A DNA stretch of 64,000 nt, taken from NCBI GenBank assembly GCA_976226885.1, contig OZ320317.1, positions 70,122,001 to 70,186,000 on the forward strand. Reading direction: 5' to 3'. Position numbers and translations under genes: made by a program. The stretch is from Iphione sp. A-MEVVRFRX5. Lineage: Eukaryota. This document shows positions 6,237-59,091 of this stretch, piece after piece. The notes under the pieces are model-generated. The model was given only the letters and a program-made list of their open reading frames with translations. It was not told the origin of the DNA and searched no databases. The stretch's first letter is position 1. Every line of letters starts with the position of its first letter.

Positions 6237-9200
6237 TTACTTGACGAGAAAACTGAAAAAGAAAAGGATTGAGTCATACACAAAGTTTCTACTTTTTTAG
6301 AGGTAGCAGTGCTGATACAGTGGTTGAATTTTAAAGCAAGCTTGTGTATTCCTACACCCCTCTGTTCAGCCAAGCAGAACCGAGGGTTGTAAACTTGCAG
6401 GAGGGATCAAAGTACAAGATACTATTTTACAACCCTTATAGTACACCTATGGTGTGTACATGTATCTACTCGATTTATACATGAATCATACTGATTTACT
6501 AGTTCGTGGAAATTACCATAGGAATCACTTATAATTACTTTATATGGTCTAATTTTTCCTATGCATGTAGCAGAAAGTAGCGACCTTATAATGGAAGAGA
6601 TTTAAAGAGCGTACGATGAGATACTGGGTAATGTTTACTAACAATCTTTCAATTTTATTGAATGCTCGCTTAAAATCGCACCCACCTGTATGGATAACCT
6701 TGGTATTTTGCTCTGAATACTGAGAGCAACAGACTGAAGAACAGGGCCACCGACACCAAACCAGTGATCACCACAACTAAAAAAAGTAATTTCCATATTT
6801 CATTTACAACACATACACTGAACATATGCTAATATAAACACAAAATTAAAAGAATCTTGCCAGTGCTACTGAACGGCAGTGTTGTGGCATCCGAAGTGGT
6901 CAGCCTGGTTTCACATTTAATTTTTGTGTTTTTTTTACACTGCCACCTATTCATTATTAAGTGACAGGCAGTACTACGTAGGTCTACATTTTGTTTGTGT
7001 ATGTGTGTATTAAATGTCATGAATCTTTGTCAGTGTCCTATGTGAGCTCGCAAAGGCGTTCAAACAATTATGAAAGGTTTTATCAAAGTGCAAAGCCCTC
7101 TGATACCATATTTTATTTTTGATATTATTATTAATAATTATCATTATAATGATCATCATAGTACCAGCATTACAATAAAACAAAACCCATCTTTAAATTC
7201 CATACTGACCCATTTTTTATATCGTTAACTGGGATTTTGCTTTGTCTCCTTTATATTATGTTAACAATACAATAACCCCCCCCCAACCTTCCCCATGTAA
7301 TTAAGTCTCACTCTCTAATAAGAAAGGGCCATGTAGTATTTCATTTGGTTTTTTTATCACTTAGAATCCCCTTGTCTTATCAATGTTGCACGATTTTCAC
7401 AAGACAGACGTCAGCAGGTTTATTATGAACACTTACTTCGCTTCTTGCTGGCATCTCCTTTAATATTGTTTGCTTCGTTCAGCAAAATCATCCCGACAAC
7501 AACAGCAACATCTGGTATCTCGAGTTAAGGAAGTTCATGCAATTGCTTTCATTCCAACAGTAACAGATTAAAACAAAGAAATTTTTGCAGGTGTTTCATC
7601 TCAAGAAAATGTATTCATTATTCTACTATTTTCTGGTTGATTAACATTAACAGTTTTCCCAGCAGAGATGTACTGCAGGTTCCATAAGAGACAGATGAAC
7701 GTGGGGGAAGAGAAAGAGAGAGCAAAACGTAGAGCCCTCCTCCTTCATACACATACATACAGATGCAGGTGATGCCAGAGAGGACAGCAAAGGCTTGCTG
7801 TCTTACGTTATGTCATTTGATGTGCAGTGTATAATGTGCACGGATTCAGTGAGGGGGTAGTATGCAAAACCCCATCACCTCCACCTATACACATGCTTGT
7901 GCATACAGCAGTTAGCAATGGTTCCCAGTTTAACACCAAATCATTTGGTGTGCACTGTACTGTACCCAATGTCAGTGTGCACTGTGTATAAATACTATGT
8001 GTGCCTCAAGCTATTAAGTGTGAATGTGTAAACATGTCCTACATCATATAATTCTGTATTATGTATACTGTGCGTGTCTGACAGTGCATCAATTAGTGCA
8101 CACTGTTTATATGCTTTGTGCATGAAACTGTGTCAGTCAGTATGCACCATGTATACTCTATGTGCCTGACATTGTGCCATTTAGTAGGCACTGTGTATAC
8201 TTTTTATACCTAACAATGTGTCAGCAAGTGTACACTGTGTGTGCTCATTGTACCTGATACTGTATCAATCATGTACAGTAGGACGTCCCATATGCGGACA
8301 CCCTTGGTTCTGTCCCAAACTGTCCGGATTTCAGATGTGTCCTGATTATAGATCACTTAGCAGTAAATGAGATGTGTATACATTATTATTATTAAATTTG
8401 AAGAATAAGGGTCCTAAAAGTACTAAATTTGATGATCAAGAGTCCTAAAAGTACTGAATTTGATGAATAAGTGTCCAAAAAGGACTGAATTTGATGATAA
8501 AGAGTCCTAAAATTACTGAATTTGAAAAGTAAAAATCCAAAAAGTACTGAATTTGATGAGTAGAAGTCCTAAAATTACTGAATTTAATGATTAAGAATCC
8601 AAAAAGTACTGAATACAGTGGGGTCTGTGAAAATGACTACTGAGGTCTCTCTGCTGCCTCTGGAGCCTCCCTTCACATGACAACACCTCGTCCACAGGGT
8701 TTATTCATAACTACCTTTGAAAATGACTTCTGGAGCCTCTCTGGAGCTCCAAATTCACGCAACAACACCTTGCTCACAGGGTTTATTCATAACTACCTCT
8801 GGAAATGACTTCTGAAGATTCTCTGCAGTCCCAAATTTGCCCAACAAACAGTGTCCATAGGCAGAAGTTTTGTAAAATTAGCTGTTCTTATTGTAGACAT
8901 CTGTGTGTAATGCTTAAGTATAGAAAACATATTGGTTCTTTTTTAAATCGTCCGCATTTGAGATGCATCTGCATCCCAGAAGTGTCTGTGAGGGGACATT
9001 GCACTGTATATGTGTCATACATCACGTCTTACATCTATCGGAGTATGAAGTATGACCCTCTGCCTACCTATCTATTGAACTCCTCCCCCCTTTCAAACCA
9101 CTAATCCACCAATCAGCTTGGGTTAGAGTGTCAAGTGTCCATGAGGTCTGCATGGGGGGGGGAATGTATTACTGTCCCCTACACTTGTCACCCTGCCCCT

Positions 9201-17856: not shown

Positions 17857-18367
17857 CTTCCTCCATATGGCTAACAACAGCTGAAACGTCGCACGTTATG
17901 ATTGGCTAGTCAACAACCTCGACCCTGGTAGTCGCACACAGAGTGTCGGACCCCAGCTTTGACACCAGAGGGCATCTCAATCTGCATGATGATGAAGTGC
18001 TTCACGGCACTGAAGTGCGTTTTCACTCCTTGACTCGAAATGCAGGTCTTAAATCTGACGTTAACATTTGTAGAAGAAGTTCCTCTGGCTTTAGGATCAC
18101 GGCTTAGCTTGAACGTGTAACACAGTACTGTTAGTTAAAAGACGATGCATGAAAATGGGTACTGTACTGTCTATGTAAAGTGTTTATATATAAGTAGTAA
18201 TAATGGCCTTTTAACTAAGAAGCAATTGAAAATTTGTCATTGGTGTACGTGACCCTATGCAGTTGTAAACGTATCCATTCCTTATCTTAGTGATGAGGTG
18301 ACAATTAGGATTAATGTGCAGAAGTCGTTAATGTTATGGAGAATATCTAGTTCCTGGTTAAAGATAC

Positions 18368-18844
18368 TGTAGTTTCTACTTGGGTTCAATAAAGAACTGA
18401 CAACTCTGAGTCCTGATTCAAAACTGTCTTTATTCAGGTTCCCTCTCATATTTATATCTTTTCTCCAATCCAGGCACTAGCCAATCATCTGTCAGTAACA
18501 GAGTAAGAAAATACATTGTTACCTTCTTTAACAGCCCTTTCAACTAACCCACCAACCAGGAGAGAGCAAAGTATCACTTTTGGGGCTGTGGGACCACAGC
18601 CGAGTGCTGCCGATCCAATCACAAGAGAGCTTTGAGACTCCAGGGTAGTTTGTTTTAAATCCAGGGGTGGCTGTGGTACCACAGCGACCCTTAGTGCATG
18701 TGCACCGAGTCCAGTACTCCTGCACTTACTTCGTTTGACCAGTGCACCCCGACTGTGGCACCACACACTTCTGCGCACAGGGCGTGCGCCCGTGCCTCCA
18801 CCTGTGGCACCACAGCTCGCGGCCGGCTCCTGTATACCACTACA
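18368..18844 (-). repeat. 3' LTR
   Basis: Differs from 27877-28353 at 6 of 477 positions by manual comparison; minus-strand TATAAAT (~18450) and AATAAA (18434-18429); four TGTGG-N2-CCACA palindromes. Confidence 0.97.
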
Positions 18845-18857
18845 CTCTCCCCTCTTT
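18845..18857 (-). other. Polypurine tract
   Basis: AAAGAGGGGAGAG directly abuts the 3' LTR on the minus strand. Confidence 0.9.
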
Positions 18858-19082
18858 AAATTACACCCACCCCTGAGGGGTGGGGCGAAGCATCACACCC
18901 TAGAAGATCAATGTAGGAACAGCAATTCTAACTCAATCTCCCAACACTATAGCCACTAGGTAGCTTCCTTAATTTTAGCACCAATGAAATTTCTCTCGCC
19001 ATCATTACTTAACACCTGCTAAAATTTTACAATGCATCTAATCCCAAACGTATCCAAGTGTCCCTGAGCATGCAGTCTTATA

Positions 19083-19312
19083 GGCTTGAACTACGGCTTA
19101 CGGCCGTGGTAGTTCAGTAACACAGTCATATCAAATGAACTAAGGCTTACGGCCATGATAGTTCAGTGCAATAGTCATATCAGATGTGGAGGTATGTAGT
19201 CCTCTGAATGTGAAGTAAGGCTTACGGCCGTGGCAGTTCAGTGAAACAGTCATATCAAGTATGGGGGCTTAAGGCCGCAAAAGTTCAACCAACCAATCAT
19301 ATAAAAAAAACA
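19083..19312. repeat. Four degenerate ~50-70-bp direct repeats in the element's 3' untranslated region
   Basis: GGCTTA(C/A)GGCCRYRRYAGTTCA...A(G/A)TCATAT at ~19095, 19144, 19218 and 19266. Confidence 0.75.
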
Positions 19313-19535
19313 CTATCATACTTTGAATTCAACAACGGAGAAGCCCGTGTTGGGCAAAACTTGACCTCTACGTAAACTCTGAATCTTGCCTCACTCTCTC
19401 GGAGGAAAGTTTGATCATCGGGATGATATCAGTCTCACGTGGAGTTTGAGGCCCGAGCAACGACACCAACTCAAATAAAAAAACATTCTTTAACCGCTCG
19501 GGCCCCTACTCACCACCCTGTGGAGGTCGGCTGTT

Positions 19536-20605
19536 CTACTCCTCCGTCCACATCACATCAGTGTTGGTGCGAAGCTGCTGAGGGGGGCGGGCCTCCAGAA
19601 GGTCCCACACAGTGGGATCCTCCGCTCGTTGTTGGGCCCGCGCCGCCTGCGCCTCCCGCTCCCAGGTGTCGAAGGCCTCGCGCCTCGAGGCTGCCGTCGT
19701 CGCGTAGGTCGGACGCGGGTCTTCGAGGAGGTTGGTCGCGGCTTCGATGGAGCGGTTGTGCCAGCGGGTGACACGTTCGCGGTCGCCCCACTCGAGCCGG
19801 TCAGGGATCCGCATCCCTTCCAATGCGAGGACCGGCCGCCTGACCAGGGGGTCGATGAGGTGCTGCGGCGATGCCTCCGACTCCGCCAGGGCCAGAACCC
19901 ACGCCAAGGAGGAACTGGCGATGAAGCGCGAGGTGGGGCTCATCTCCATCCAGCGGGGAGGGGGCCATTCCAGCCGCTGGGGAAGACGTACCATAGTGGG
20001 AACCATGACGGCTCGCCGTACCGCCGGGTAGGGTGGCACTCGGCCGTCCAGAATCTCCCGGACTCGACGGGACAGCGGGCCGAGCATGGGCGTGGTGAGC
20101 TCCCGTTCTGCCAGTCGTTGAAGGTGTCCTGGTGGGAGGGCTGCCTCCCGGGGCCGATCGCTTGACGGATGAGGGTGTCCGGAGGCCTCCCAAGCCGTCA
20201 GGGTGTCGAGGAGGGCGGCCGGACTCCAGTCAGGGGTCGGGAGGGATGGCCCCCCCCGCAGTAGACTAGTGACTGACGCGGGCGTCCCTGGAGTGGCGCT
20301 GCTGCTTCGCGGTAGGCGGGAGCCGTCAATCCCCTCTCCACGACCCATGGATGGCGCCGCCGCAAGTGGGCGAGCCAGGTGCCCGGCTCGCCTAGGACGC
20401 TGGGACAGAAGAGGCAGTCCATCTGTCGGTGTCGACAGCCCCCATGCTGCTCCTTCTGATGGCGCTCCAAGGACTCCCCCGCCCAGTACACCCGGTGGGG
20501 TGTGCAGAGCTCGCACCAAGCCGTACCAGGGGGCAGGGGCTCTCCTTCCTCCACCTGGGGTGCCGGGGGATGTGCCACTTTCTGCCGGGGCATGCCGCTT
20601 GCCAT
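19536..20605 (-). CDS. Retrotransposon accessory protein: two C2H2-type zinc fingers plus an unknown C-terminal domain, ~356 aa if the G8 run at 20250-20257 is read as G9
   Basis: From the ATG at 20605: CELC-x14-HQKEQH and CLFC-x12-HLRRRH. The overlapping 382-aa frame becomes protein-like from GPSLPTPDWSPAALL onward. One extra G at the run joins the two frames. Confidence 0.65.
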
Positions 20606-20630
20606 AGAGAGGGACGGCCAGGCAGGGTGG

Positions 20631-21463
20631 TTGTGGAACCACAAGCTCGTTGACAGTACCGGTTAGGTCAAGACGTGGGGCCACAGACTACAACACACAG
20701 AGATGAACAGTCAATGGCAGATAATCACTGTGGTACCACGGACAACAAGCTGGCTGCCTTGGGGTGGTCACTCAGCCGCCCTTACCTATCGTCGGAGATG
20801 GAGGTGCGAGGTGCGGCCACAGCCCGGTGATGGCGACTGCTGCTCCTCGCCCAGTCACTTGATCCTTCCGCAGCGTCTGCCCGAAACCGTGGTCTGTGGT
20901 TCCACGCTCACGATCGGCCTCCTGTTTCTCAATGCCCCGTCGGATGTGTCCACACAGAAAGACTTATTTTTGGCACTGTCCCCCGGTGTCCCCACTGTTC
21001 TTCTCAGCCTCTTCTCTCCCTCACGTGGCCAGCTGTGGTGCCACGGGCCGCCATTGATCACGTCTCGCGAGACCACGGGTTCTCTCGCGCCCCGCGAGAT
21101 CCCGTGTCCCGCGTCCGTATCTCATCTGTGGGCCCGCAGCGAAACTGCTTACTCTACGACTGCTGAAGGTTCATTCTTTTTGTACTATAGGGGACTGGTA
21201 GGGATAGGACAAAACTGTGCTACACCACTCTATTTCCCTTCCTTCGGCTGTGGCACCACAGGCACTTTCGCTGCGTTCTCCCTCCAGAGGGCGACACCTC
21301 CTCCCCGCCTGTGGTTCCACAGCCCGTTCACCTGATACATTGTATCAGTTATTTCCCCCGATCCCACCAATCTCCCGTTATGTTGGATCTCTGTGGCACC
21401 ACAGTATGAGTGGTTACCCTCCCAGCCAATCGCTCGAACGCCAATGATATCTGTGGCACCACA
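20631..21463. promoter_or_regulatory. Cluster of ~10 TGTGG-N2-CCACA palindromes between the divergent accessory genes
   Basis: Copies at ~20631, 20674, 20728, 20894, 21033, 21126, 21248, 21309, 21391 and 21451; the half-sites are conserved and the 2-nt spacer varies. Confidence 0.75.
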
Positions 21464-21560
21464 TACACGATCTTCGCTGCCCGCCGTAGCCAATCATCTT
21501 GGCTCACTGCGCTCCCCCCAAATATAAATGAGATGGGCTACGGCCAGCCTGCTTCATCTG
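21424..21560 (+). promoter_or_regulatory. Putative internal antisense Pol II promoter
   Basis: Three CCAAT boxes (~21426, 21441, 21490), TATAAAT at 21523-21529, and an Inr-like TCA ~30 nt downstream. Confidence 0.6.
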
Positions 21561-21760
21561 GACTCTTGCTGCACCCCACCAGGCTTCTCTATCCTTCCAG
21601 CTACCCCTTCCAGCTACCCCAGTTCTACAGGTATCCATCTTATGTAGGAATGGCAACTGTTTAACATCTTTGAACTAGCTGAACCAGAGACAAATCATTT
21701 TTTTTTTTTTTTTTTTTTTTTTTTTCACGGGTTTCTCCCTTTTTCAGCCTAAACCCAGCC

Positions 21761-22630
21761 ATGACCAATCAAGGGACCGCGTTTGGGCACCTTCCTGCTA
21801 CCGCTCTTCGGCCTTATCGCCTGTGAGTGTTTGGATAACTCTTCCTCTACTTCCATTCGTTCTAAGTGTTATCCAACATCGCCCCTTCCTGGAGTTTAGT
21901 GTCAGCCAGACCCATCTTCATTTTTCCTGCCTATTTTCTCTTCCACAGGCTCCGCTATCGACCCACCCTGCCCGGGTCAACTCCCTCTGGCGTGAACATT
22001 CATACAGAAGGGCCGGTGGTACGAGTTTCCGGCACCCATGAGATCATAGATGCCCCCTTCATCTTGCCCGTTCCGGGTCGTCTGATCTTCCTGGGACCGC
22101 TTCACATGATTGACCTGGTGGTACGCCCCATCGCCCCTCCTGGCTCGGCGCGGCCCCCGCCAACGATGCCCGCCCCATCAGACTGGGCTGCTTGCTACAC
22201 CACCCCGCTGCCCCCACCGGCTTCTCCCTCCTCCAGTGCTTCCGGGTATAGCACCGACAGCCCCTCATCCCTTACCAGCAGTCGTCTGGACCCCTGGGGA
22301 TCCCACCAGGACCTCTCCGCGATGGGCGCATCACCACCCCCGGCGGATGGATCGGGCCGCTCCTCTCCAAGCCCGCGGCCGTCACCCGCCCCGTCAGGAA
22401 AAGACTCTGTACTGCCTCCGTCTCTGGCCGTCATGAGGCCAGAATGCACTACCCCCGAGACAGGCGATGACATCTCCTGCGGCTCCTCACCCCTGGGGAC
22501 TTCCCCTCCGGGAGGTCATGTGCCCTTCTCGGCGATTTCGACTCCCGCCCTGGCAGCCTGGTATCGTCAGCTTCGTTGGGGCGACGCCCCCTTCTGCCCT
22601 ATTCTGGTATCTTCCTCCGATGAGGAATAG
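21761..22630 (+). CDS. Spliced antisense accessory gene of the Gypsy element, 247 aa, unknown function
   Basis: Kozak ccagccATG at 21761; donor CT|GTGAGT at 21823; acceptor ttttctcttccacag|G at 21948; both phase 2. The product runs MTNQGTAFGHLPATALRPYRLLRYRPTL...FCPILVSSSDEE*. AATAAA lies at 22697-22702, followed by a GT-rich tract. An upstream intron 21631-21747 contains a T28 tract. Confidence 0.65.
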
Positions 22631-23024
22631 GACTTTGAATGGCAATTATACTCCCCATGCTAAGTACTCTGTAGTTGCGTGGCCGACATACCTTGAAATA
22701 AATTTCAGCTAACTGATTTGTCCCTTGTGTTCGTTCTATGTTCTATTCGCTCTCAGACTTAACTATTCTCACCCCGCTCGTCATCCCGTAGCAGCGACCA
22801 GAGGACATAACCCGAGCAGGTTCTAATTCTTACACCCTGGTCCGGGTTGGCTCTACCCCTGATAGCGTGCCGGCTCACCCAGAGGACAAAGCCTGGTCAG
22901 ACCTCCGTCTCCTTCTGGCCCAGGCCGGCTCCACCGTCAGTTCCACCTTCATGGTCTGTCAACTTCTCAGCTACCACGGGCCTACACTGCGAGTGGCCGC
23001 AGTGCTGCCCTCCCTAACCGGGAG

Positions 23025-23372
23025 CCTCCCCCCCTTTTCTCCCCCTAGAACTTTTGGGTACCACACCCGGGGATGTCCAGCCTCCCCCTCTGGAGCTTTT
23101 GGGTCCCGCACCCGAGGATGTCCAGCCTCCCCCCCCTGGAGCTTTTGGGTCCCACACCCGAGGATGTCCAGCCTCCCCCCTCTGGAGCTTTTGGGTCCCA
23201 CACCCGGGGATGTCCAGCCTCCCCCTCTGGAGCTTTTGGGTCCCATACCCGAGGATGTCCAGCCTCCCCCCTCTGGAGCTTTTGGGTCCCACACCCGAGG
23301 ATGTCCAGCCTCCCCCTCTGGAGCTATTGGGTCCCGTACCCGGGGATGTCCAGCCTCCCCTCCCTGGAGCTC
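23025..23372. repeat. 45-46-bp GC-rich minisatellite, ~7.5 copies, just downstream of the pol stop
   Basis: GATGTCC anchor at 23072, 23117, 23163, 23209, 23254, 23300 and 23345; units differ mainly in C-run length. Confidence 0.93.
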
Positions 23373-23415
23373 TCTGCTCTCCCTAGTCCGACCTCCATTG
23401 GAAGACTTTTTCTTT

Positions 23416-26400
23416 TTACGAGCTCCCTTCCTTATTCGCGCGCCGCCACCAAGACGCGATCCAACGAGGTATCTCCCCACGATACAGTCGTAGGCGATTC
23501 CGGTGCACCACCTTGGGGCGAGCCCGGGCTGCCCGTTGGACCACCAATCGCTCTGGGTCCAGCACCTTGGTGACGAGCCATGGACCCGTCCAGGGCAAGT
23601 ATACTTTAGGGCTCTTCCCTCTGGGTGGTTGAGCTTCCTGTAACCACACCGCGTCCCCTTCCTGTAGGGGTTCCCCTTTTGCCTGGCGATCATATCCTCT
23701 AGCCTGCGTCCGTGCAGCCTTTACCAAGTGCTCCCGGACCGTCTGGTAAGCCCTCTTCAGCTGGCGTTGAAGGCGCTGTACCCACTCTGGCATAGTCACC
23801 TGTTCCTTCCCCTCCCACTCGCTAAGAGGGAGGCCATCCATCGCATGCGCTGGCAGGACCACCTCCCGACCGAACATCAGGAAGTTAGGTGTGAAGCCAG
23901 TACTGGCTTGGGGGGAAGCTCGGTACGCCATCATAAGCAGTGGGAGTGCTTCGTCCCAGTCGTCGTCGGTATCATGGCAGTGGGCTTTAATCATTTTCCC
24001 TAGCGTGCGAAAGCTCCTTTCGATAAATCCGTCCCCCTGGGGGTGCCTAGGGGTCGTCTTGGTTCGCTGGATTTGCAAGAACTCGCACAGAGCAGAAACA
24101 ACTTCGCTGCAGAAGTTGGTCCCTCTGTCGCTGTGGAGCTCCATGAAACATCCATACCGAGAGACCACCTCCTCCACTAGTACTTGTGCTATCCGGGTTG
24201 CCCTCTGATCAGGCAGTGGGAAGGCCTCTAGCCATTTAGTAAAGTGGTCCCCCACCATTAAGATATAACAGTTGCCCCGCTTGGTATGGGGGAACGGACT
24301 GGCCACGTCCATGGACCATCTCTCCATTGGCTCCCCGGACACATAAGTGCGCAGCGTTGTCTGTGGGCGGAAGGGGTTTACTGTGAGGAGGGCACAGTGG
24401 CATTTCGCACAGAAGTTTTGTATATCTTGTTGCATCCCAGGCCAGTAATATGCCAAAGACACCAAGAAGGTGGTACGGTCTATCCCTAAGTGGCTACCCA
24501 TCCGGCCTTGGTGGATTTCTTCGATAGCCTTGACTCGTCGCTGCGCAGGGAGTACCAGCTGCAAGCGTGTTCTTGAGGCTTCGAGCTCATGCCACCGCCG
24601 GTATAGCAGCCCCTCTTGGACCACCAGACGGTCCCACTGCTGCCATAGTTTCTTGGCCGCCCTTGACAAGGGAGAAATGTTTTCCCACTCTGGCCTACCA
24701 GACGTATCCTCCTTCAGCGTCAGGATAGGTCCAATATCTGGGTCATCCAGCTGCGCACCCCGAAGGGCGCGATCTGCCGCCCCCTGGGTGCGGCCTCGGG
24801 TGACGACTCGTACCTCCACCCCATGCTCTTGCTTGCACTGTTTACACGGCATTCGGGATAGAGCATCCGCATTACCATGTAGGCGCCCTGGTCGGTGCTG
24901 AAGGTGGAGGTGATATTGACCGATTCTCTCCAGCCATCGGGCTAACTGCCCCTCAGGGTCCCGAATACGGCTCAACCAGCTAACCGCCCCATTGTCCGTC
25001 CGCACCGTGACCTCCTGCCCGTATATAAAAAAATGAAAATGTTTCAAAGCAGCTACCACCGCCAGCAGCTCCCTCCGCATCACACAATACCTCCATTCCG
25101 GTGACGTGAGGCTGCGACTAAAGTATGCGAGGACTACCTCCTGGCCTTCCTGCTCTTGGGAAAGCACGGCTCCCAGCCCTACATTGCTGGCGTCTGTGTC
25201 CAAATAAAAACGTCCCTTAGGCATCGGGTAGCCCAGCACGGGACTGGCCTGCAATGCCCGTTTCAGGGCTTCGAAGGCCTCCTCTTCTTCGGGGCCCCAA
25301 TAAAACCGGGTCCGAGGGCTAGTCAGCCGGTGTAGGGGTGCTGCTAGATCGGCGAAATGAGCCACCAGACGGCGGTAGTAGGAACAAAGTCCGAGAAAGG
25401 CTCTTATGTCAGTAGTGGAAGTCGGCTTCGGCCATTCCTGGATACACTGCACCTTCCCGGGATCTGCCGAAATCCCCCGATAGGACACCCGATGCCCCAG
25501 GAAGGGAACCTCCTCAAGGAACAAACGGCATTTAGCCAGTTTCAATTTTAAACCAGCAGCCTCAATTCGAGAGAGCACCCGATCCAACCGAGCTAGCGTC
25601 TCCCCAAAATCCCGCCCGAATACCAATACGTCGTCCAGATAGACTAGACATTGCTCCCAGGTCAGTCCCCTGAGTACCGTGTCCATTAAGCGCTCAAACG
25701 TAGCGGGAGCGTTGACCAACCCAAACGGCATCACCGTAAACTCGTACAACCCCGAGGATGTGGTGAAGGCCGTCTTTTCCTGGTCCCGCGGATCCATCTT
25801 AACCTGCCAATAGCCCGATGCTAAGTCTAACGAACAAAAGTACCGAGCTCCCGCCAGTGCGCTTAACGAATCATCAACTCTGGGTAGGGGATACGCATCA
25901 ACCTTCGTCTGTTGGTTTAGTTTCCGGTAATCGACACAGAAACGAGTAGTCCCATCCTTCTTGCGTACCATGACTACGGGACTTGCCCAGGGGCTCTGGC
26001 TCTCGACAATGACCCCGGCCTCTGCCATTTCCCTTACTAGTTGCTGTTCTTCCTGTCTTTTTGACAGGGGCAGGCGCCGAGGTTGCTGTTTAATGGGACC
26101 TGACTCCCCCGTGCAAATACGATGTTGCACCACGTCCGTACAACCCAAATCACCTTTGTGTTGTGTAAAGGCCCCCCTGTGCCGTTCTAACACCACCCGC
26201 AGCTCTCCCTGTTCCCCTCCAGTGAGGTGAACTGTCTTAGTGGCCATCAACTCATCTATCACGGTCCCTGCCCCCACCTTTGTGGTAGCCACTTTCAGGG
26301 GGTGATCTTGAGGGCAGTCAGTAACCTCCTCCCTCTGCACTGGCGAGCCAAGGGCTAGAGACGTCCCCTGTTGGATCAACAGTTCCCTCTCCCCAGTGTT

Positions 26401-27006
26401 CCACACGGGCAGCACCTGGCTTACAATGCAGCGCACTCCTACCACCCCTTGTAATAACTGACCCTCCTCTAAGCCCTCTACCAAGAATGGGCCCTCTCCA
26501 CTGGGAGACACTGGGACCCCCACCCCTTCCCCAGGGGGAACCGTAATATCGGAGGCTGCCCTCAGTACCTTAACTCCTCTGGTCTGTTCCTTCCCCCTAG
26601 GGGTCCCTCCAAACAAAACCTCCCCCTGTGACAAGTCAATGACAGTGCCATGCTGGGTCAAGAAATCTGCCCCCAATATCCCATCCCCTTCTATCTCTGC
26701 TAACAGGAAGTGGTGTTTGAATTCTTTTCCAGCAATCCCTACTTGAACTTCCTCTCTCCCTACCGTTGGCAGGATATGGCCCCCTACCCCCATAACCTTC
26801 ACAGCAGCCCTCTTAACAACTGGGCCAGGGACCACACAGGGATTCATAATGGAAACTTCAGCACCCGTATCAATAAGCAGTAGGAGTGTCCTCCCACCAC
26901 AGCTTACCTTGAGATGTGGTCCCTGGCCGTATTCCATTATCACCTCCTGGTGGACAGATGCAGTCGGTGTCCCCTGGCCTACTGAGCCGACTGCTGTGTG
27001 TTTTCC
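23416..27006 (-). CDS. pol: Pol polyprotein (protease, reverse transcriptase, RNase H, integrase), probably expressed by -1 frameshift from gag
   Basis: The 1175-aa ORF 23416-26943 contains LLIDTGA (PR), FCVDYRKLN and YLDD (RT), LDTDAS (RNase H), H...H...CAKC plus SMDV/HSDRG/IERS (integrase) and WTGPW (GPY/F). The frame is open up to 27012. Confidence 0.97.
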   Translation of the reverse strand, partial: GKHTAVGSVGQGTPTASVHQEVIMEYGQGPHLKVSCGGRTLLLLIDTGAEVSIMNPCVVPGPVVKRAAVKVMGVGGHILPTVGREEVQVGIAGKEFKHHFLLAEIEGDGILGADFLTQHGTVIDLSQGEVLFGGTPRGKEQTRGVKVLRAASDITVPPGEGVGVPVSPSGEGPFLVEGLEEGQLLQGVVGVRCIVSQVLPVWNTGERELLIQQGTSLALGSPVQREEVTDCPQDHPLKVATTKVGAGTVIDELMATKTVHLTGGEQGELRVVLERHRGAFTQHKGDLGCTDVVQHRICTGESGPIKQQPRRLPLSKRQEEQQLVREMAEAGVIVESQSPWASPVVMVRKKDGTTRFCVDYRKLNQQTKVDAYPLPRVDDSLSALAGARYFCSLDLASGYWQVKMDPRDQEKTAFTTSSGLYEFTVMPFGLVNAPATFERLMDTVLRGLTWEQCLVYLDDVLVFGRDFGETLARLDRVLSRIEAAGLKLKLAKCRLFLEEVPFLGHRVSYRGISADPGKVQCIQEWPKPTSTTDIRAFLGLCSYYRRLVAHFADLAAPLHRLTSPRTRFYWGPEEEEAFEALKRALQASPVLGYPMPKGRFYLDTDASNVGLGAVLSQEQEGQEVVLAYFSRSLTSPEWRYCVMRRELLAVVAALKHFHFFIYGQEVTVRTDNGAVSWLSRIRDPEGQLARWLERIGQYHLHLQHRPGRLHGNADALSRMPCKQCKQEHGVEVRVVTRGRTQGAADRALRGAQLDDPDIGPILTLKEDTSGRPEWENISPLSRAAKKLWQQWDRLVVQEGLLYRRWHELEASRTRLQLVLPAQRRVKAIEEIHQGRMGSHLGIDRTTFLVSLAYYWPGMQQDIQNFCAKCHCALLTVNPFRPQTTLRTYVSGEPMERWSMDVASPFPHTKRGNCYILMVGDHFTKWLEAFPLPDQRATRIAQVLVEEVVSRYGCFMELHSDRGTNFCSEVVSALCEFLQIQRTKTTPRHPQGDGFIERSFRTLGKMIKAHCHDTDDDWDEALPLLMMAYRASPQASTGFTPNFLMFGREVVLPAHAMDGLPLSEWEGKEQVTMPEWVQRLQRQLKRAYQTVREHLVKAARTQARGYDRQAKGEPLQEGDAVWLQEAQPPRGKSPKVYLPWTGPWLVTKVLDPERLVVQRAARARPKVVHRNRLRLYRGEIPRWIASWWRRANKEGSS

Positions 27007-27845
27007 GACGGTTTAGGCCCTGTAGCGTTCGATGCTTGCTGTGGGGCTTTCGGGCAATCTCTCTTCCAGTGACCCGGTTGCTTGCAGATGAAACACAAAT
27101 TGTCCCTGGGCCGAGACCTCTGAGGTCGCAGTTCCTCCCGTAGTTTGGCAAACTCCTGCATTAGGACTTCCACCATGTCCTTGGGTGCTGGGCTGTTAGA
27201 ATCCTTGTTGCCACTTGCTTGTATGGCATTCACTCTCCTCGCGGGGAACCGCTCCTGGATCTCCACTACCTGTAGTGCAGCCTCCATGGTCTTGCATTGG
27301 GCTTCTAAACATTTCAAATGCAGGTCGTCCGGGAGTGCCCGTTGGAAGGCCGACACTGCTGCTAATTCTCGTGTTTCCGCACTCACATCGGGGTACGCGG
27401 TGCGTACAAGTCGTCGGACTTTGTCAGCAAACCCCTTAGCATCCTCCCCTTTCTGCCTGCAGATCGTGGACAGGTCTTGCATAGCCGTCACTCGATTGCG
27501 TCGACGCCCAAACCGCTTCTCCAAGGCAGCTACCCTGGACTCAAAGTCGGCCTTGTCCTCCGATGGGAGGTCTCCAAAGTACATTTGGGCGGTGCCAGTC
27601 AACGACAGAGCCAGTGCTGAAGCTCTTGTGTTCGGACTCCACTTGCATGCATCTGCCCATTCGACAAACTGGACAATCCAGCTGTCCCAGTCGACTACGC
27701 TGCCATCGAATCGCTTGGGCTTCATGGCGTTGGTGCGTAGTGGCTCCTCTGGGGCTAACACATAAGGTTCAGCTTCCTCTTCATCATCCGCATCCGGTAC
27801 GCGCAACTGTACCTCGTCATCAACTGCCACAAACTTAGTAGCCAT
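26979..27845 (-). CDS. gag: Gag, 288 aa, with a CCHC zinc knuckle
   Basis: KPKRFDGSVVDWDSWIVQF capsid-like start; CFICKQPGHWKRDC knuckle; ATG just after the PBS. Confidence 0.95.
   Translation of the reverse strand: MATKFVAVDDEVQLRVPDADDEEEAEPYVLAPEEPLRTNAMKPKRFDGSVVDWDSWIVQFVEWADACKWSPNTRASALALSLTGTAQMYFGDLPSEDKADFESRVAALEKRFGRRRNRVTAMQDLSTICRQKGEDAKGFADKVRRLVRTAYPDVSAETRELAAVSAFQRALPDDLHLKCLEAQCKTMEAALQVVEIQERFPARRVNAIQASGNKDSNSPAPKDMVEVLMQEFAKLREELRPQRSRPRDNLCFICKQPGHWKRDCPKAPQQASNATGPKPSENTQQSAQ
27000..27006 (-). other. Candidate -1 ribosomal frameshift site G_GAA_AAC
   Basis: In the gag frame (TCG GAA AAC), inside the gag/pol overlap; pol is in the -1 frame. Confidence 0.6.
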
Positions 27846-27857
27846 GATGTACAGTGG

Positions 27858-27875
27858 ATCCCACTTCTGACACCA
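27858..27875 (-). other. Primer-binding site complementary to the tRNA-Leu 3' end
   Basis: TGGTGTCAGAAGTGGGAT, 1 nt from the 5' LTR; complementary to ...ATCCCACTTCTGACACCA of tRNA-Leu(CAA/CAG type). Confidence 0.88.
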
Positions 27876-27876
27876 G

Positions 27877-28353
27877 TGTAGTTTCTACTTGGGTTCAATA
27901 AAGAACTGACAACTCTGAGTCCTGATTCAAAACTGTCTTTATTCAGGTTCCCTCTCATATTTATATCTTTTCTCCAATCCAGGCACTAGCCAATCATCTG
28001 TCAGTAACAGAGTAAGAAAATACATTGTTACCTTCTTTAACAGCCCTTTCAACTAACCCACCAACCAGGAGAGAGCAAAGTATCACTTTTTGGGCTGTGG
28101 GACCACAGCCGAGTGCTGCCGATCCAATCACAAGAGAGCTTTGAGACTCCAGGGTAGTTTGTTTTAAATCCAGGGGTGGCTGTGGTACCACAGTGACCCT
28201 TAGTGCATGTGCACCGAGTCCAGTACTCTTGCACTTACTTCGTTTGACCAGTGCACCCCGACTGTGGCACCACACACTTCTGCGCACAGGGCGTGCGCCC
28301 GTGCCTCCACCTGTGGCACCACAGCTCACGGCCAGCTCCTGCATACCACTACA
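27877..28353 (-). repeat. 5' LTR
   Basis: 477 bp, TG...CA, followed by the TSD ATAC. Confidence 0.97.
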
Positions 28354-28858
28354 ATACAATGAAATGAAATGAAACATTCGATCCTACCCCTGGACGGAAC
28401 TAACACAATGGGCAGTTAATCTTATATTGTCTGAAGGACATCCATTGAGATACACAATGAGTTTTGCATACCTTTGATAGCGTGTTTACATCACTAACGT
28501 ATATAAGTAAGGAGTTGCATGTCCCTAGTGGGACTCGCTTGTAAACAACTGGGAAATCTGTCCTGTGCTCTGCAATAAAGGCCTGACGAGAAGAACCTAT
28601 GTGTGGTGTATTTATTGTTACAAATGACTTCGGAGGGATGTGGCACAAAAATAGTCCCCCCACTGGTGCTGAACTTTGTTCCTCAAAACCTACCGGTAGT
28701 GTTTCTTGGACTCATAGTTATACCATATTGTCTTTTTTTTTCACCCAAATCTTATAGTCTCTTACTTCATGATGAGGCCAGCCACAGACTAGACAGTCCC
28801 CTAGATAATGCTGATAATACTCATTTTTTCCAAGGCAGTTATCCCAGATATCCAGAGT

Positions 28859-38760: not shown

Positions 38761-40374
38761 ATTGAATTGAATTGAATTGAATTGCTTTTATTTATGTCTC
38801 CGATAAATTGGTACAGAGCTTTTCACATAAATATGAGGTATATTGCATCGGTTCATAAAAATGATTATATAATATAAAAAGTCAATGTATAGCAGCTAAG
38901 TAAAACGTAGTATATGTAAGCATCATTACTATGATAGTCTATTGCACAGGCAGGTCAATGTATAACAACTAAGTAAAACGTTGTTTATGTAAACATTGTT
39001 GCTATAGTAATCTATTGCACAGACAGGAAGTTTCACATCTTTGGTTATCAAAATTGCACACGATCACATTTGAGTCTCCTTCAATTATAATGAGGCAGTA
39101 TTGAACAAGTGTGCATCCAATTAGACACAATAGCATTATTGAGACCCAACAGTGCTGTCTCAATTTTCCATAATCACCTAGACTCCACATTGCACTTTAC
39201 AAAATTCCTTGTGCCAGATGGGAACTTATCAATCCAGGGGTAACGCTTCACTCTTCCATAATAAACATACAGATTCAGGTCTGATAGTGAGTGCATTCAG
39301 AACACATTTCACCAAGCATTACTGTTTGATATCATACAGTCTACTAGACACTTTGAACTATCAGCAAGCAGTACTCCAGGATACTGTGCTGAGTTAGTAC
39401 ATCTGCATTATTCCTTTCACACAGCAAGCAATTTCCATACACATGCATAACCTCCACACATATTTTCACCTTTTATACAACCACAGCCAAAGAATCCTGA
39501 TGACAACCGATAACACTCCAAAGACAGATAGCAAGTGCTCTACCAAAAAGATGTGCATTATTCATGTCACTCAGCTGACAAATTTCTATTCAGACTGTTT
39601 TCAGCAGCTCTGACACACTGAGTGTGAATTCGGCATCACAATGTGCTACCTGACCATCGAAAGAACAGCTCTAGGTAGTTTAGCTGCATTTTTCGCTGCA
39701 ATAGGGAGTGAGTTCCACGATGTTACTGCTCTATAGCGCAGTGACCTCGCAAAGTGGGTTGACCTTGGCCTCTCAACCATGAACCCTCTCACTCCCTCTT
39801 CTCTCATCCTGTAGCGCCTTTCCTCAAGCAGCAGGCCCAATGCCTGCAATTTGTGGACTGCCTGCAGGCCTCTGTGATCAATGGTATACCCAAGAAGTTT
39901 TACAGTGGGTGCCAATATCATTGGCTCATTCTGTAGATACACATCTAGCGGTATTTCAGAGGCTTTACCCAGAGGAGTATAAGCACATTTAGACGGACTT
40001 AGCAATAGTCCCTCCCTAGTCACCCACTGATGGACAGCATCCACCATGGTTTGAACCCTCCCTCGAAGTTGCAGGAGGTCAGATGCTTGGACTAACACCG
40101 ATATGTCGTCCGCATACATGACTGGGATGCTGTGTCTTGGCAGGCAGGACGGAAGAGTATCTACCACCAACATAAATGCACTAGGGCCAAAAATTGACCC
40201 CTGGGGCACGCCCTGCTTCAAAACTTTGACGCCAGACATTTCGGCTCCACATCTTACAAATTGCTGCCTATCTGTAAGATAAGAGGCGATCATTCGCCTT
40301 ATCCTCACCCCTGCCCCAAGCACTGTTAGGCGTTCCATAATCTTGTGATGCTGTACTACGACAGATGTGACCAA
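38761..40374 (-). mobile_element. 5'-truncated non-LTR retrotransposon (CR1/L2-group-like) with an RT fragment and a (CAATT)n tail
   Basis: GVPQGSIFGP...MYADDISVL at 39646-40374; AATAAA plus (CAATT)n at 38761-38790 on the minus strand. Confidence 0.85.
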
Positions 40375-41473
40375 TAATTATAATACTATGATTATGCTAG
40401 GAAATTATTTTGGTGTGTTGTTGAAATTATGAACATTAATTCAATGATCTTATACAAGTAGGTAAAGCCAAACCAATGTCATTCTTTAATTTTTTACTGG
40501 AACTTGTGATAGGCTTGATGTCTTCACCAGTAGAGGAGAGGAGGCCTATGAAATGTAGTGAGCTTAGTCACCTGACATCAAGATGTTTTCCATAAGACCT
40601 TGATCATAAGAGCTACTGCAGGGTATGCTATTTTCATGTGAGTAAAGGTTTGCAACTGACAAGATCCCAGACTAAATATGGATGCAAAAGTTGTGATGTT
40701 CATCTCTGTATACCTGTTTCCATATGTATCATATGATCAAGCATCTTGATCGTCTTAACATTCAGGACTAGGTCATTGACAAATACTTGCTCAAAAAGCA
40801 TGAATTTACATGTATTTGATTAAAAACACCCTGGGAATGAAAAATAAACATGCATAATGTATTGAAATAATTGACTTACTTGGTGTATTTTTTTCTCTAG
40901 CACATATGTCCATACATGTCTTATCCATAACGAATAAATAAATTATGTAAATCCATGTTTATGTAATGTGAGAAGTAAAAGGTCCATTTGATGTGTAAAT
41001 CCAATTGACAATAAATAAACTCATATTTATGCAGGAAAAGTAATTCAAAGTGTATCTCCACAATGACTTTTCCTTAGGCAATTGGACAAATAATGCTTCA
41101 GCTAGTTTGAAAAAATACACAAATCCATGATGTTAAGCCATCTGATTATCCTGAACATATTGTATCATGTCTCTGGTCTCTGGAATGGATGACTTCGCGA
41201 AATAAAGAAGGTCCACATGGTGAAGTGAGCTCAGTGTGTTCTCTTCCAGTGCAAATGAGAACTGTCTTTATTCAAGAAAATCTGTCCCTTATATACAGAA
41301 TCTCGCTCTAAAATTAGCCACAATGATGTAACAGTACTCCTAAAAAAAGCAACAATCAAAAAACCTTTTCTTCCGACAATATGATGTAAGAAGTAAATTT
41401 TCCATTTGATTTGTAAATCTAAGTGACAATTCAGAAAAAGTCCATATTTATCTAGAAAAGGTAATTAAAACTA

Positions 41474-42337
41474 CAGTAAAACCCCTCCACAATGAACATC
41501 AGTGGGACTGGTCTGAGAGTGTCCGAGTCCATCAAAGGAGGGATGGTAACAGGTCCTCTGGGGTGTGAGGGACGAGGTCCCACCTTGCTGGGGTGAAGGT
41601 ACCCTTCAAAGGAGGGATAGTATTGGTTCCGACAGGGTGTGAGGGACGAGGTTGCACCTCTCCTGCGTGTGCAAATCCATCAAAGGAGTGGACAAGGGTG
41701 AACGACTGCCCCTCTCCAGGGTGCTGAGACAAGGTCTCACCTCGCTGGGTGAGGTACCCATGAAAGGAGGGATGGTAGTGGTTCGGACAGGGTGTGAGGG
41801 ACAAGGTTGCACCTCTCCTGCGTGTGCAAATCCATCAAAGGAGTGGACAAGGGTGAACGACTGCCCCTCTCCAGGGTGCTGAGACAAGGTCTCACCTCGC
41901 TGGGTCAGGTACCCATCAAAGGAGGGATGGTAGTGGTTCGGACAGGGTGTGAGGGACAAGGTTGCACCTCTCCTGCGTGTGCAAATCCATCAAAGGAGTG
42001 GACAAGGCTGAACGACTGCCCCTCTCAAGGGTGCTGAGACAAGGTCTCACCTCGCTGGGTTAGGTACCCATCAAAGGAGGGATGGTAGCGGTTCCGACAG
42101 GGTGTGAGGGACGAGGTCACCCCTTCTCCAGGGTGAGTATCCACTGTAGACCATGTAAAATTAAGATTCAGGACTGAAAAACAAGTGTCTCTAGATGGGT
42201 GGCTGTTGTGTGTAAGTGTCCATTGTGTCTGGTCCATGGTAAACGTTATTTACTGTTTATGTTTGGGACTGTCCATCTGGCATCCATTGTAGGGGTCATC
42301 TGCTGTGTACGTGCGTCCGTTGCAAGGGTCTCCACTG
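41474..42337. mobile_element. Tc1/mariner(pogo)-type non-autonomous element containing a 155-bp tandem repeat
   Basis: TA|CAGTAAAACCC...GGGTCTCCACTG|TA degenerate TIRs; ~3.2 copies of a 155-bp unit at 41635-42130. Confidence 0.7.
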
Positions 42338-44076: not shown

Positions 44077-47000
44077 ATGTCAGGGAAACATCCAAAGCCC
44101 TCCACCAGCAAGGAAATGCCCAGCCATCAAGGAGAAAGTGACTATGATCCAACTTCACACAAGGAGGTATGCAGAAGGTATCAAAAGAGAAAAGGAAAGA
44201 AAGATGGGCCCAGATTCTGCAAGCATGTAGCCAAGCTGAGGCGTGAAGCCAGGAAGAGGGACCGCTTGGGTGAGCATTGATGTTGCATTCATATGAAATG
44301 TCACTGACCATTATGTATGTGTATTACATGTGTAGTATGACTCATTCTCTTGGTTATGTTGGTACCCGCTGAGAAAAGTATGTAACATTGTGTGTTTCAT
44401 TCAATATATTGCGCCCTCACAGACTGTGACATAATATCACAGACAATGTGATGTCTTATGATCTATGGAGATCATATAAGATGGCTTGATCTTATGGTTG
44501 TTACATGTGTAGTGTGACTCCTTCTCGTGTTTTATCCTAGTACAGGCTGATAAAACATGTGTGTTTCATTGAGTATGTCTCAACTTCACAGACATGTACT
44601 TGTCTGTCATATGATATTGCGGACATTTAATGGTTAGTGATATAATATCGTGGATAATGACCATCTGGTGATCTATGGAGACCATGTAAAATGGCGCAGA
44701 CCCTTATGGCTGTTCCATGTGTAGTGTGACTCCTTCTCGTGCTTCTATTAGTACAGGCTGATAAAGCATTTTGTGTTTCATTGAGTATGTTTCACCCTCA
44801 CAGACATGTACTTGTCTGTCATATGATATTGCAGATATTTAATGGTCAGTGATATAATATCGTGGATAATGACCATCTGGTAATCTATGGAGACCATATA
44901 AAATGGGGCAGACCCTTATGGCTGTTCCATGTGTAGTGTGACTCCTTCTCATGCTTATGTTAGTACAGGCTGATAAGGCATTTTGTGTTTCATTGAGTAT
45001 GTTTCACCCTCGCAGACATGTACTTGTCTGTCATATGATATCATGGATATTTAATGGTCAGTGATATAATGTCGCGGATAATAACCGTCTGGTAATCTAT
45101 GGAGATCATATAAAATTGGGCAGACCCTTATGGCTGTTCCATGTGTAGTGTGACTCCTTCTCATGCTTATGTTAGTACAGGCTGATAAAACATTTTGTGT
45201 TTCGTTGAGTATGTTTCACCCTCACAGACATGTACTTGTCTGTCATATGATATCACGGACAATGAACGTCTGATATCTGAGTGTCTTCATATTTTGACAT
45301 GCCCTTTCATGTACAGTACAATCTTGATTTCTGACCAGTGGTTGGGTCTGGCTGAAAATGGTTGTAATAGCAAGTTTGGTCGGAATTCAATCATTGTTAA
45401 CTACAGAAATCAGTACTTTCGTTCCAGGCTGTAGTGGTCGTAATAGCAAGAATGGTCGGAAATTGATGTGGTCGCAAATTAAGACTCCACTGTATGTTAC
45501 AGCTTCAAATCTACCACCCATAAAGCCCCAGTGCCATTTGATTATATCTTTAACCAGGAACTAGATATTCTCTATCACATGACAGAGCTCTTCCATATCA
45601 TCCTGGGGTAGCATACTACCATCTATTGTTGAGAAATGAGAGACCAGAATACATCATGTCCAACTGATGGCAAAGACCCATGTAATTTTTAACATGACAT
45701 TAATACAATTAGTAATTACAAATTACTTGACCTGGTAGTAACATATTATACTCGTAGGCACTCTGAAGGAGATGAGCCTCACAAGCGCCGAGTCTCTGAT
45801 GGGTCTCAGCAGCGCCGGGTCTCTGATTAAGGGGGTATCAGGCACCACAGGAGCAAGGCCCCCGCCAACCCTGATGAACCCAAGTGGCATAAATCAAAGG
45901 TCAAGCTTTCTGCCAAGGCATTGGACACAGATGAGGCACCGACGCCAACGAACCCCAGCACCCACAGAGGAGCAGGGCCCCTTTTAGTGCTGCTGGCACT
46001 GATGAACCCAAGCAGCGTAAAGCAAAGGTCAAGCATTCTGCCAAGGCATCGGACACAGATGAGGCCACCGACGCCGACAAACCCCAGTGCCCACAGAGGA
46101 GCAAGGCACCTTCTTGTGCTGCCCATGATGAACCCAAGCGGCGTAAATCGAAGGTGAAGCCCAAGGTGTCAGACACAGATGAAACCACCAACGCTGATGA
46201 ACCCAGGCGCCCACAGAAGAGCAAGGCCCCTTCTCATGCTGCTGACGCTGATGAACCAAAGCGCACCCAGAGGAAGGCCCCTTCTCATGCTGCCGAGGCA
46301 CTCAGGCGCCCGGAGGAAAAGAGCACACAGATGGCGAATGATGACTGGAGGCTTCACCAGCAGGTCTGCATTCTCACAGACCAAGTTACACAGCAGCAGG
46401 CTCAAATCAACTCAGTGAGCCAAACCCTAACAGAAGTAATGAAGGCGATGGGCCAGGTGTCCCACTTCCAGGAGCAGCTCGCCACTGAGGTCTCAGAGAG
46501 GAGACAAGAAGCCCGGAATATCGGGTGTCACATAGACCATCTAAGTTAAGACCTCGAGTGCCTCTCCATGGCAGGAAATGCCCATGATGACACCAGCTGT
46601 CAAACCGAGAAGGTTAAGATGTGTGAAGTGGCCACACAGACAGACCCTCGTGTAGCACTCAAAGAGAGAAGCACAGGAATTGTTATGAAGGTGCTTAAGT
46701 GTGCCAAGTCTGCTGGAGTAGATGCAGGCACATAGACAACTCCTCTGATGGACAAAACTGAACCCATGGAGGAAGACCTGAATGTTGTAGATGAAGCCGC
46801 ACAGACTGCAGTTCTACTGCAGACATTAGAGTGTGTGAGGTGCTTTGCCCGACTAGCCTACGTAGATGACAGCACCCAGACGCAGGCTCCATCCCTTGTA
46901 CCACAAGCTGCCGGAGGGAGCGATATACATTCCCTCTTCAGTATGGAGGAAGACGATGTCCTTGATTGTCGGACCCTTAACCACCAGGACCTGCAAAACA

Positions 47001-58678: not shown

Positions 58679-59091
58679 TACATGTTGATGAAATCTCCTG
58701 GTTATTACATCTTCAGGCCCGTAACTAGACCTAGGGATATGTGTGTTCGAGGAGTGTCTTTAGTTCATGTTGGACCTCTAAGTGACTAATTAATGTATTC
58801 ATGCACTCTTAAAAACTATTATACTGATATGATTCAGTTATTATTTCTGTATTTCTATTAGCTTGCACAGTAAGTATAACATGACGCCTGCAAACACCAA
58901 TCTCTCTCCTAGATGGGGTTCCGGAGAACCCTCCGAATCCACTGGCCTGATCTATATGTTACGGAATGTGCATGTGGGAAAACAGTAATTTATTGGTTCA
59001 GTTACATGTACCTGCAATCGTATACTTAAAATATATTGATTAATCATAGCCATTTCTTCCCTTCTATTAAATCATATATTTCAGGACCATC

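Follow-up and report, generated by a model that had tools for sequence, protein, structure and literature searches.

Whether a Ty3/Gypsy retrotransposon may encode its own sequence-specific regulator is the question raised by an element on the minus strand of the 64,000-nucleotide stretch of Iphione sp. A-MEVVRFRX5 DNA analysed here (contig OZ320317.1, positions 70,122,001 to 70,186,000; hereafter the window). Its gag is followed by pol, ordered protease, reverse transcriptase (RT), RNaseH and integrase, between two long terminal repeats (LTRs); after pol, a sense open reading frame (ORF) for a C2H2 protein, designated ORF-Z, occupies the place of an env-type ORF. A first-pass annotation had described a young, intact gag-pol element with a sense C2H2 ORF, a head-to-head antisense gene and a palindrome shared by the LTRs and the region between the two genes, and had proposed a self-encoded DNA-binding regulator. 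This proposal gains partial support from the sequence data, namely the lineage-specific dyads that LTR and internal region share, the placement of sites ahead of TATA boxes, the co-variation with finger 2 and the purifying selection. Taken together, ORF-Z likely binds the palindromes of its own lineage in the LTR and internally, and likely turns that lineage's transcription on or keeps it open.

Palindromic sites and the two accessory genes

At up to one mismatch, TGTGGNNCCACA has 19 matches in the window, and 18 of them lie within the element, four in each LTR and ten between the two extra genes. Shuffled windows yield 3.1 +/- 1.9 matches and none of 100 shuffles reaches 19, which bears out the recurrence reported for the LTRs and the intergenic segment. 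The animal genome from which the window comes (1.18 Gb) was searched with the C-terminal domain of ORF-Z: among 4816 candidates, 150 were scored and all of them matched (at least 150 matches), mostly at about 40% identity and in open frames of 500-660 aa. Fifty divergent loci were then sampled, 30 spanning the frame-length classes and a further 20. In the set of 30, an ORF-Z frame with C2H2 is present in every locus and an antisense exon-3 homologue in 26, and 28 are preceded by a cognate gag or pol of about 60% identity. The layout of two extra genes after pol marks the whole radiation in this genome, and the expected conservation of both ORFs among copies is observed. Beyond what had been annotated, the window copy of ORF-Z proves to be broken, and the layout spans a large radiation with several specificities.

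The 14-bp geometry of the dyad recurs across these loci, and the half-sites vary, comprising CTGTGG, AYGTGG, TCGTGG, TGGCGG, TTGGG(T/G) and (T/C)(T/C)GGGG, each found in both LTR and internal region. An automated scan detected a dyad common to the two regions in 27/30 and 16/20 loci. It gave no result for L113, L116, L117, L119 and d01, and the shared dyads of d02 and d28 were found by inspection, the latter through k-mer counts. The site of the d28 lineage (L096, L116, L117) is a variant, GGGCCCGA, with a half-site spaced differently from the 14-bp dyads. Of the 118 sites in 15 LTRs, 116 precede the TATA box of the LTR, often as tandem units; U3 (the unique 3' part of the LTR) carries tandemly amplified dyads, as many as 16 in one LTR, in the interval 140-1100 bp before TATA. 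Internally, many lineages have a dyad some 17-21 bp ahead of the antisense TATA, and roughly half of all lineages have one within 5-50 bp of the codon at which ORF-Z starts.

In the proposed mechanism, two ORF-Z molecules would read one dyad, the U3 arrays would serve as an enhancer, the site next to the antisense TATA would drive the antisense gene, and the dyads near the ORF-Z start would give feedback on ORF-Z itself. The same protein could instead bind the dyads as a repressor, shutting the LTRs of its own lineage in a form of self-limiting, copy-number or latency control. The sites close to the ORF-Z start and to the antisense TATA are compatible with repression, as are the retention of open gag and pol in one copy with a broken ORF-Z and the lack of a recognisable activation domain in ORF-Z. 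The tandem U3 sites, however, occupy the place typical of enhancer repeats and do not lie over the start site, and many lineages combine an open ORF-Z frame with LTR pairs that are almost identical, which makes repression unlikely.

A role of the palindromes in RNA was also considered, as hairpins or dimer contacts in the genomic RNA, with ORF-Z acting as an RNA export factor like Rev or CERV. C2H2 fingers are capable of RNA binding, and all internal and 3' U3 sites fall inside the genomic RNA. An RNA export factor is encoded by Cer1 (PMC10309623). The imperfect dyad arms nevertheless contain 81 G-U against 82 A-C pairs on the RNA strand, and because this shows no G-U bias the dyads look like DNA sites rather than RNA hairpins. 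Stems of 5-6 bp with loops of 2-4 nt would in addition be weak, and the sites are positioned relative to TATA boxes on both strands, so that a function in RNA appears very unlikely.

The sense gene is damaged in the window, where the C2H2 ORF (20198-20605, 135 aa) is a frame-shifted remnant that has lost about 559 nt at 20308/20309; both fingers are kept, within residues 1-99. All 13 aligned sister copies carry extra sequence at this point, 559 nt long in seven of them, and the natural sister copy L007 has ORF-Z open across 542 aa, with a helical extension and a long disordered stretch between the two C2H2 fingers and a C-terminal domain of some 190 aa. The element is young, as annotated, because its 477-bp LTRs differ at just 6 positions, and its gag and pol are open, but the deletion in ORF-Z means that it is not intact. 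None of 14 copies has all four frames whole; the window copy would rely on ORF-Z from sister copies.

The finger Cys and His residues are invariant in 36/36 aligned rows. The structural model combines Cys2-His2 spacing with a beta-beta-alpha fold, at a predicted local distance difference test score (pLDDT) of about 80-95 in most 10-residue blocks of residues 21-150 and 66-70 in two blocks; Pfam C2H2 matches fall under the cut-off (best E 4.6e-05). The inter-finger linker reads H.G.R.R, which we take to be unlike the TGEKP type. Fold searches with ORF-Z produced no clear match (best Z 5.1, generic helices), and its C-domain has neither a family nor a fold match in Pfam and structure searches. 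Atlas searches returned generic C2H2 clusters, and scores under 0.8 for the C-domain, and against solved-structure sequences the ORF-Z and antisense proteins gave rows at chance level only.

For the antisense gene, the TATA box and a nearby CAGT-type start motif are conserved among loci, as are the splice signals across the radiation. All 18 other representative loci in which exon 3 was located have a TATA box, a first coding exon that is open and a donor of phase 2 that fits the acceptor; among the 18 rows scored for AATAAA, 16 have it after the stop, within 67-141 nt. Two of 22 rows were left out of this survey, being without the exon-3 motif; the exon model of the window family was set separately, and the automated call for the window and c04 took a spurious start. 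In the window, the predicted product is about 247 aa, from an ATG at 21761 in exon 2, and donor and acceptor are phase-compatible. At the level of sequence, the spliced gene with its own promoter and polyA signal is thus upheld. The antisense intron of most lineages (e.g. L058, L052, L107) also contains an extra strong donor of the CAG/GTAAG type, 70-130 nt before the exon-3 acceptor and beside the in-frame donor, which hints at alternative splicing.

The antisense protein has a beta-rich N-domain, a Ser/Pro-rich middle and a conserved GD..PI.V end. It gave no family, fold or motif match that would support the chromatin or anti-silencing cofactor suggested in the first-pass annotation, its model is of low confidence (pLDDT 52), and 11/11 antisense proteins lack a Pfam match to TRP28 or a related domain at E up to 1. 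The C-terminal PI.V.S.E end was considered as a candidate SUMO-binding motif, a reading that was set aside; this end may be structural, because fold matches align it together with the N-terminal beta domain. The protein would most probably be an adaptor that ORF-Z controls and that adjusts the circuit, although this suggestion is a weak one.

Selection was assessed through the pairwise ratio of nonsynonymous to synonymous substitution rates (dN/dS), a check proposed with the first-pass annotation. Values for ORF-Z span 0.03-0.17 (0.03-0.15 in the finger domain, from 4 unsaturated pairs, and 0.08-0.17 in the C-domain), and antisense exon 3 gives 0.06-0.35 where dS is measurable. By this measure, ORF-Z and the antisense gene are both working genes under purifying selection rather than neutrally evolving frames.

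Co-variation of the dyads with the second finger

The variable half-sites are accompanied by different residues in the finger-2 helix. At positions -1, +2 and +3, D/E-Q-S/T occurs with TCGTGG, H-Q-S with TGGCGG, D-Y-A with TTGGG and D-H-S/A with TYGGG. The rules for TCGTGG, TGGCGG and TTGGG were fixed from the first locus set, ahead of the second, in which D-x-Q-S loci gave TCGTGG in 6/7 cases. Among 134 alignment columns, helix +2 ranks first in tracking dyad class (11 deep clades; label permutation of the maximum, P=0.008) and the four canonical contact positions jointly give P=0.002, values that are too kind because the clades are related, the classes were set by the analyst and CTGTGG occurs with two unlike helices; helix +3 ranks fourth. 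On this basis, finger 2 would set the variable outer dyad bases, and invariant arginines would read the shared inner G. The apparent best independent case is d28 against L107-L110, which are non-sisters in every tree built (the RT tree solely from copies in the source genome): d28 shares its RT with TGGCGG elements yet differs from them in helix and dyad, with a non-alignable U3.

Recognition by another domain, either the antisense protein or the ORF-Z C-domain, would be in line with the conservation of both and with the somewhat greater likeness of the antisense N-domain in same-dyad clades (0.57 vs 0.46 identity). No column of the antisense N-domain (P=0.31) or of the C-domain (P=0.12), however, tracks the dyad beyond chance, and same-dyad lineages are separate in the antisense tree, a fast-method tree with long branches (d07/d09; d28/L107,L109; L108/d06). 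A binder of this kind is therefore highly improbable.

Several observations weigh against dyad recognition by the ORF-Z fingers. Of the 134 columns, helix position -1 comes no higher than 16th and +6 no higher than 50th. In both the RT and the C-domain tree the two TTGGG clades group as sisters, the TCGTGG clades have LTRs in common, and the dyad classes, d28 included, were assigned by the analyst after viewing the sites. The CTGTGG class pairs with E-P-G-T as well as D-E-H-Y, and the latter shares its His at +2 with the TYGGG class. For a DNA-bound two-finger fold, the best Foldseek row is Tramtrack 2drp, at a non-significant E=1.5 and a probability of 0.51, and no TATA-type promoter of ORF-Z was found. 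Moreover, ORF-Z, the internal sites and the LTR are linked, so they could travel jointly without any binding.

A further point of this kind is the Runx-type core in 7/9 scored internal sites of the window lineage, to which 9/11 sites of d10 may be added. Host transcription factors could thus bind the dyads, with ORF-Z serving another role; this alternative is strongest in the window lineage, and the single CTGTGG dyad alongside two unlike helices is in its favour. In the TCGTGG, TGGCGG, TTGGG and TYGGG lineages, by contrast, Runx-type cores number at most one per lineage, yet the 14-bp geometry is kept except in d28. Several unrelated host factors would neither share this geometry nor track finger 2, and such binding is regarded as rather unlikely. 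Recognition by ORF-Z is accordingly retained as the likely reading at the strength given above.

Exchange of ORF-Z blocks and distant relatives

Elements that are 95-99% identical over gag-pol carry ORF-Z blocks scarcely alignable as DNA, with saturated dS. ORF-Z blocks are thus exchanged among gag-pol backbones that are otherwise nearly the same. The divergence was not attributed to positive selection on ORF-Z, since the saturated dS that goes with it points to exchange. In six same-dyad pairs with exchanged ORF-Z, the LTRs remain 71-99% alike. In d18/d28, the sole close-backbone pair with unlike dyads, U3 and the antisense gene are replaced too, and the remaining LTR and gag-pol are common. 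This pattern, although from one pair only, fits a putative compatibility rule between ORF-Z and its sites.

Outside the genome, a word-seeded search with the ORF-Z C-domain gave no matches. When 1.84 billion proteins were scanned by profile, 26 weak matches emerged, none under 1e-10, three of them to the ORF-Z C-domain. These three led to Mytilus proteins, among them those of CAG2256847.1-type genes, which combine two N-terminal C2H2-type fingers with a C-domain sharing the WPP..W and LALPG motifs, and profile comparison of the Mytilus and ORF-Z C-domains yields a probability of 94% across 111 columns. One mussel gene model opens with part of a Gypsy integrase (E=1e-33), fused in front of the fingers, which suggests the same post-pol position. 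The mussel comparison covered the ORF-Z-like proteins and the integrase piece. As a separate observation, a C-domain homologue in P0025 is nearer in detail to ORF-Z than the mussel proteins are, so that a third lineage carries the C-domain.

A broader scheme is put forward more tentatively, as a possibility we rate somewhat below the main reading itself. In this lock-and-key circuit, the zinc-finger key of each lineage would fit no palindromic lock but that of its own LTR and internal promoter. One genome would house at least five specificity groups, keys would be traded only with a compatible lock, and the circuit would be old enough to be common to mussel elements.

Window features and comparison with known systems

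The coordinates of the element are collected in Table 1. The primer binding site, presumably of tRNA-Leu type, represents one of two types across the radiation. No envelope family was found in Pfam scans for an env-type third ORF after pol, membrane segments not being separately predicted.

Table 1. Features of the Ty3/Gypsy element, in window coordinates
Feature	Position	Strand	Description
Target-site duplication	18364..18367; 28354-28357		ATAC (4 bp), two copies
3' LTR	18368..18844	-	477 bp, ends TG...CA; dyad sites x4 in U3 (18587, 18672, 18754, 18803)
Polypurine tract	18845..18857	-	before 3' LTR
Repeats of about 49 bp	19087..19258		three related copies between ORF-Z and 3' LTR (3' untranslated region)
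ORF-Z, 3' part	19536..20308	-	beyond 559-nt deletion, other frame; conserved C-terminal domain
ORF-Z, 5' part	20309..20605	-	residues 1-99, both C2H2 fingers (about 20351-20515); off frame after deletion, stop at 20198
Internal dyads	20632..21463		10 sites (TGTGG NN CCACA type) between antisense TATA box and zinc-finger start codon
Antisense gene (predicted)	21523..22702	+	TATA 21523; exon 1 to 21630, exon 2 21748-21822, exon 3 21949-22630; AATAAA 22697
Spacer after pol	23041..23371		46-bp unit x7 in tandem, with GGACATCC word and degenerate dyad
pol	23416..27012	-	1198 aa stop to stop; overlaps gag in different frame
gag	26979..27845	-	288 aa, CCHC knuckle
Primer binding site	27858..27875	-	adjoining 5' LTR
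5' LTR	27877..28353	-	477 bp, ends TG...CA; dyad sites x4, 143-359 bp upstream of TATA (about 27959-27966); CCAAT boxes; AATAAA 27938-27943

Among these features, the copy number of the 49-bp repeats varies among sister copies. The spacers between pol and the antisense polyA signal contain a second class of repeated words, GTCCTCT at least twice in 17/20 and ACATCCT in 11/20, which could be an RNA element. Several LTR matches in the genome lie away from any internal-region match and are probably solo LTRs of the family. At L089-L090 (d25), L079-L080 (d20), L041 (d01) and L073 (d17), tandem elements share an LTR region, or other retroelements are nested in or beside copies. Elsewhere in the window, an uninterrupted 994-aa frame (59071-62055, plus strand) with ankyrin repeats and an ion-transport domain is presumably TRPA-type channel-like. 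An RT fragment of another retroelement lies at 39646-40377 on the minus strand, and unrelated minisatellite arrays (31, 155 and 212 bp units) occupy 8364-8642, 41529-42153, 44314-45266 and 55868-56871.

The layout is unreported in the literature searched, with Repbase, Dfam, GyDB and most subscription journals outside the search. In foamy viruses, the element-encoded DNA-binding protein Tas acts on both an internal promoter and the LTR (PMC13220597; PMC8670036; PMC4929722). The likeness to Tas/Bet lies in the extra genes between pol and the 3' LTR, in an internal promoter, predicted here for the antisense gene, and in a putative single regulator for promoter and LTR. The element described here is in contrast an env-less Gypsy, with two opposite-strand genes instead of splice forms of one, a C2H2 protein, the same dyad at both places and several specificities within one genome; ORF-Z is a putative activator. 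In the fold search of viral structure models, no row that would point to Tas reached significance. VANDALs belong to the DNA transposons of plants. The VANC proteins of Arabidopsis VANDALs have family-specific short targets that expand in tandem and diverge along with the protein; VANC itself leads to the loss of DNA methylation (PMC5735166). All three properties of the targets are paralleled here by sequence, on which alone the comparison is made, albeit in an animal LTR retrotransposon with C2H2 fingers and palindromic sites. By analogy, the system would work like foamy virus Tas and like the co-evolving targets of VANC, as a member of neither family.

Antisense extra ORFs occur in plant Grande, RIRE2 and Retand (TRP28) and in fungal Boty, where the function is given as unknown and a regulatory role has been proposed (PMC7264820; PMC11963269). 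Like these, the antisense gene is conserved, lies between pol and the 3' LTR and has, by sequence, its own promoter; it differs in its head-to-head pairing with a sense zinc-finger gene, in the shared sites identified and in the absence of a Pfam match. Animal Gypsy-type elements with proteins beyond gag and pol include Cer1, with CERV (PMC10309623), and the Drosophila MDG1 group, with small ORFs (PMC11952523), whose products serve RNA export and cell-to-cell transfer; the available descriptions of neither present a DNA-binding regulator with cognate sites. The extra proteins of animal Gypsy elements in PMC5408684 likewise serve other ends, and the accessible parts of PMC13524379 and PMC8220671 contain no zinc-finger ORF.

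The arrangement described here resembles by analogy only a further system, from which it is separated by its eukaryotic promoters and the lack of homology. This is the immunity region of lambdoid phages, where divergent genes surround several dyad operators and specificity groups are swapped as a block between otherwise similar genomes. To our knowledge, LTR retrotransposons are generally regarded as dependent on host factors for transcription, and self-encoded transactivators are ascribed to complex retroviruses. If confirmed, a sequence-specific regulator encoded by a Gypsy clade would take the transactivator circuit outside retroviruses. It would also provide the first cognate sites for an extra ORF, a class whose function is listed as unknown in PMC7264820 and PMC11963269. 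Proteins and sites of the various lineages form a panel supplied by nature, in which every protein can be tried on every site. Escape from silencing and avoidance of cross-activation thereby become directly testable questions, with small orthogonal regulators as a possible yield.

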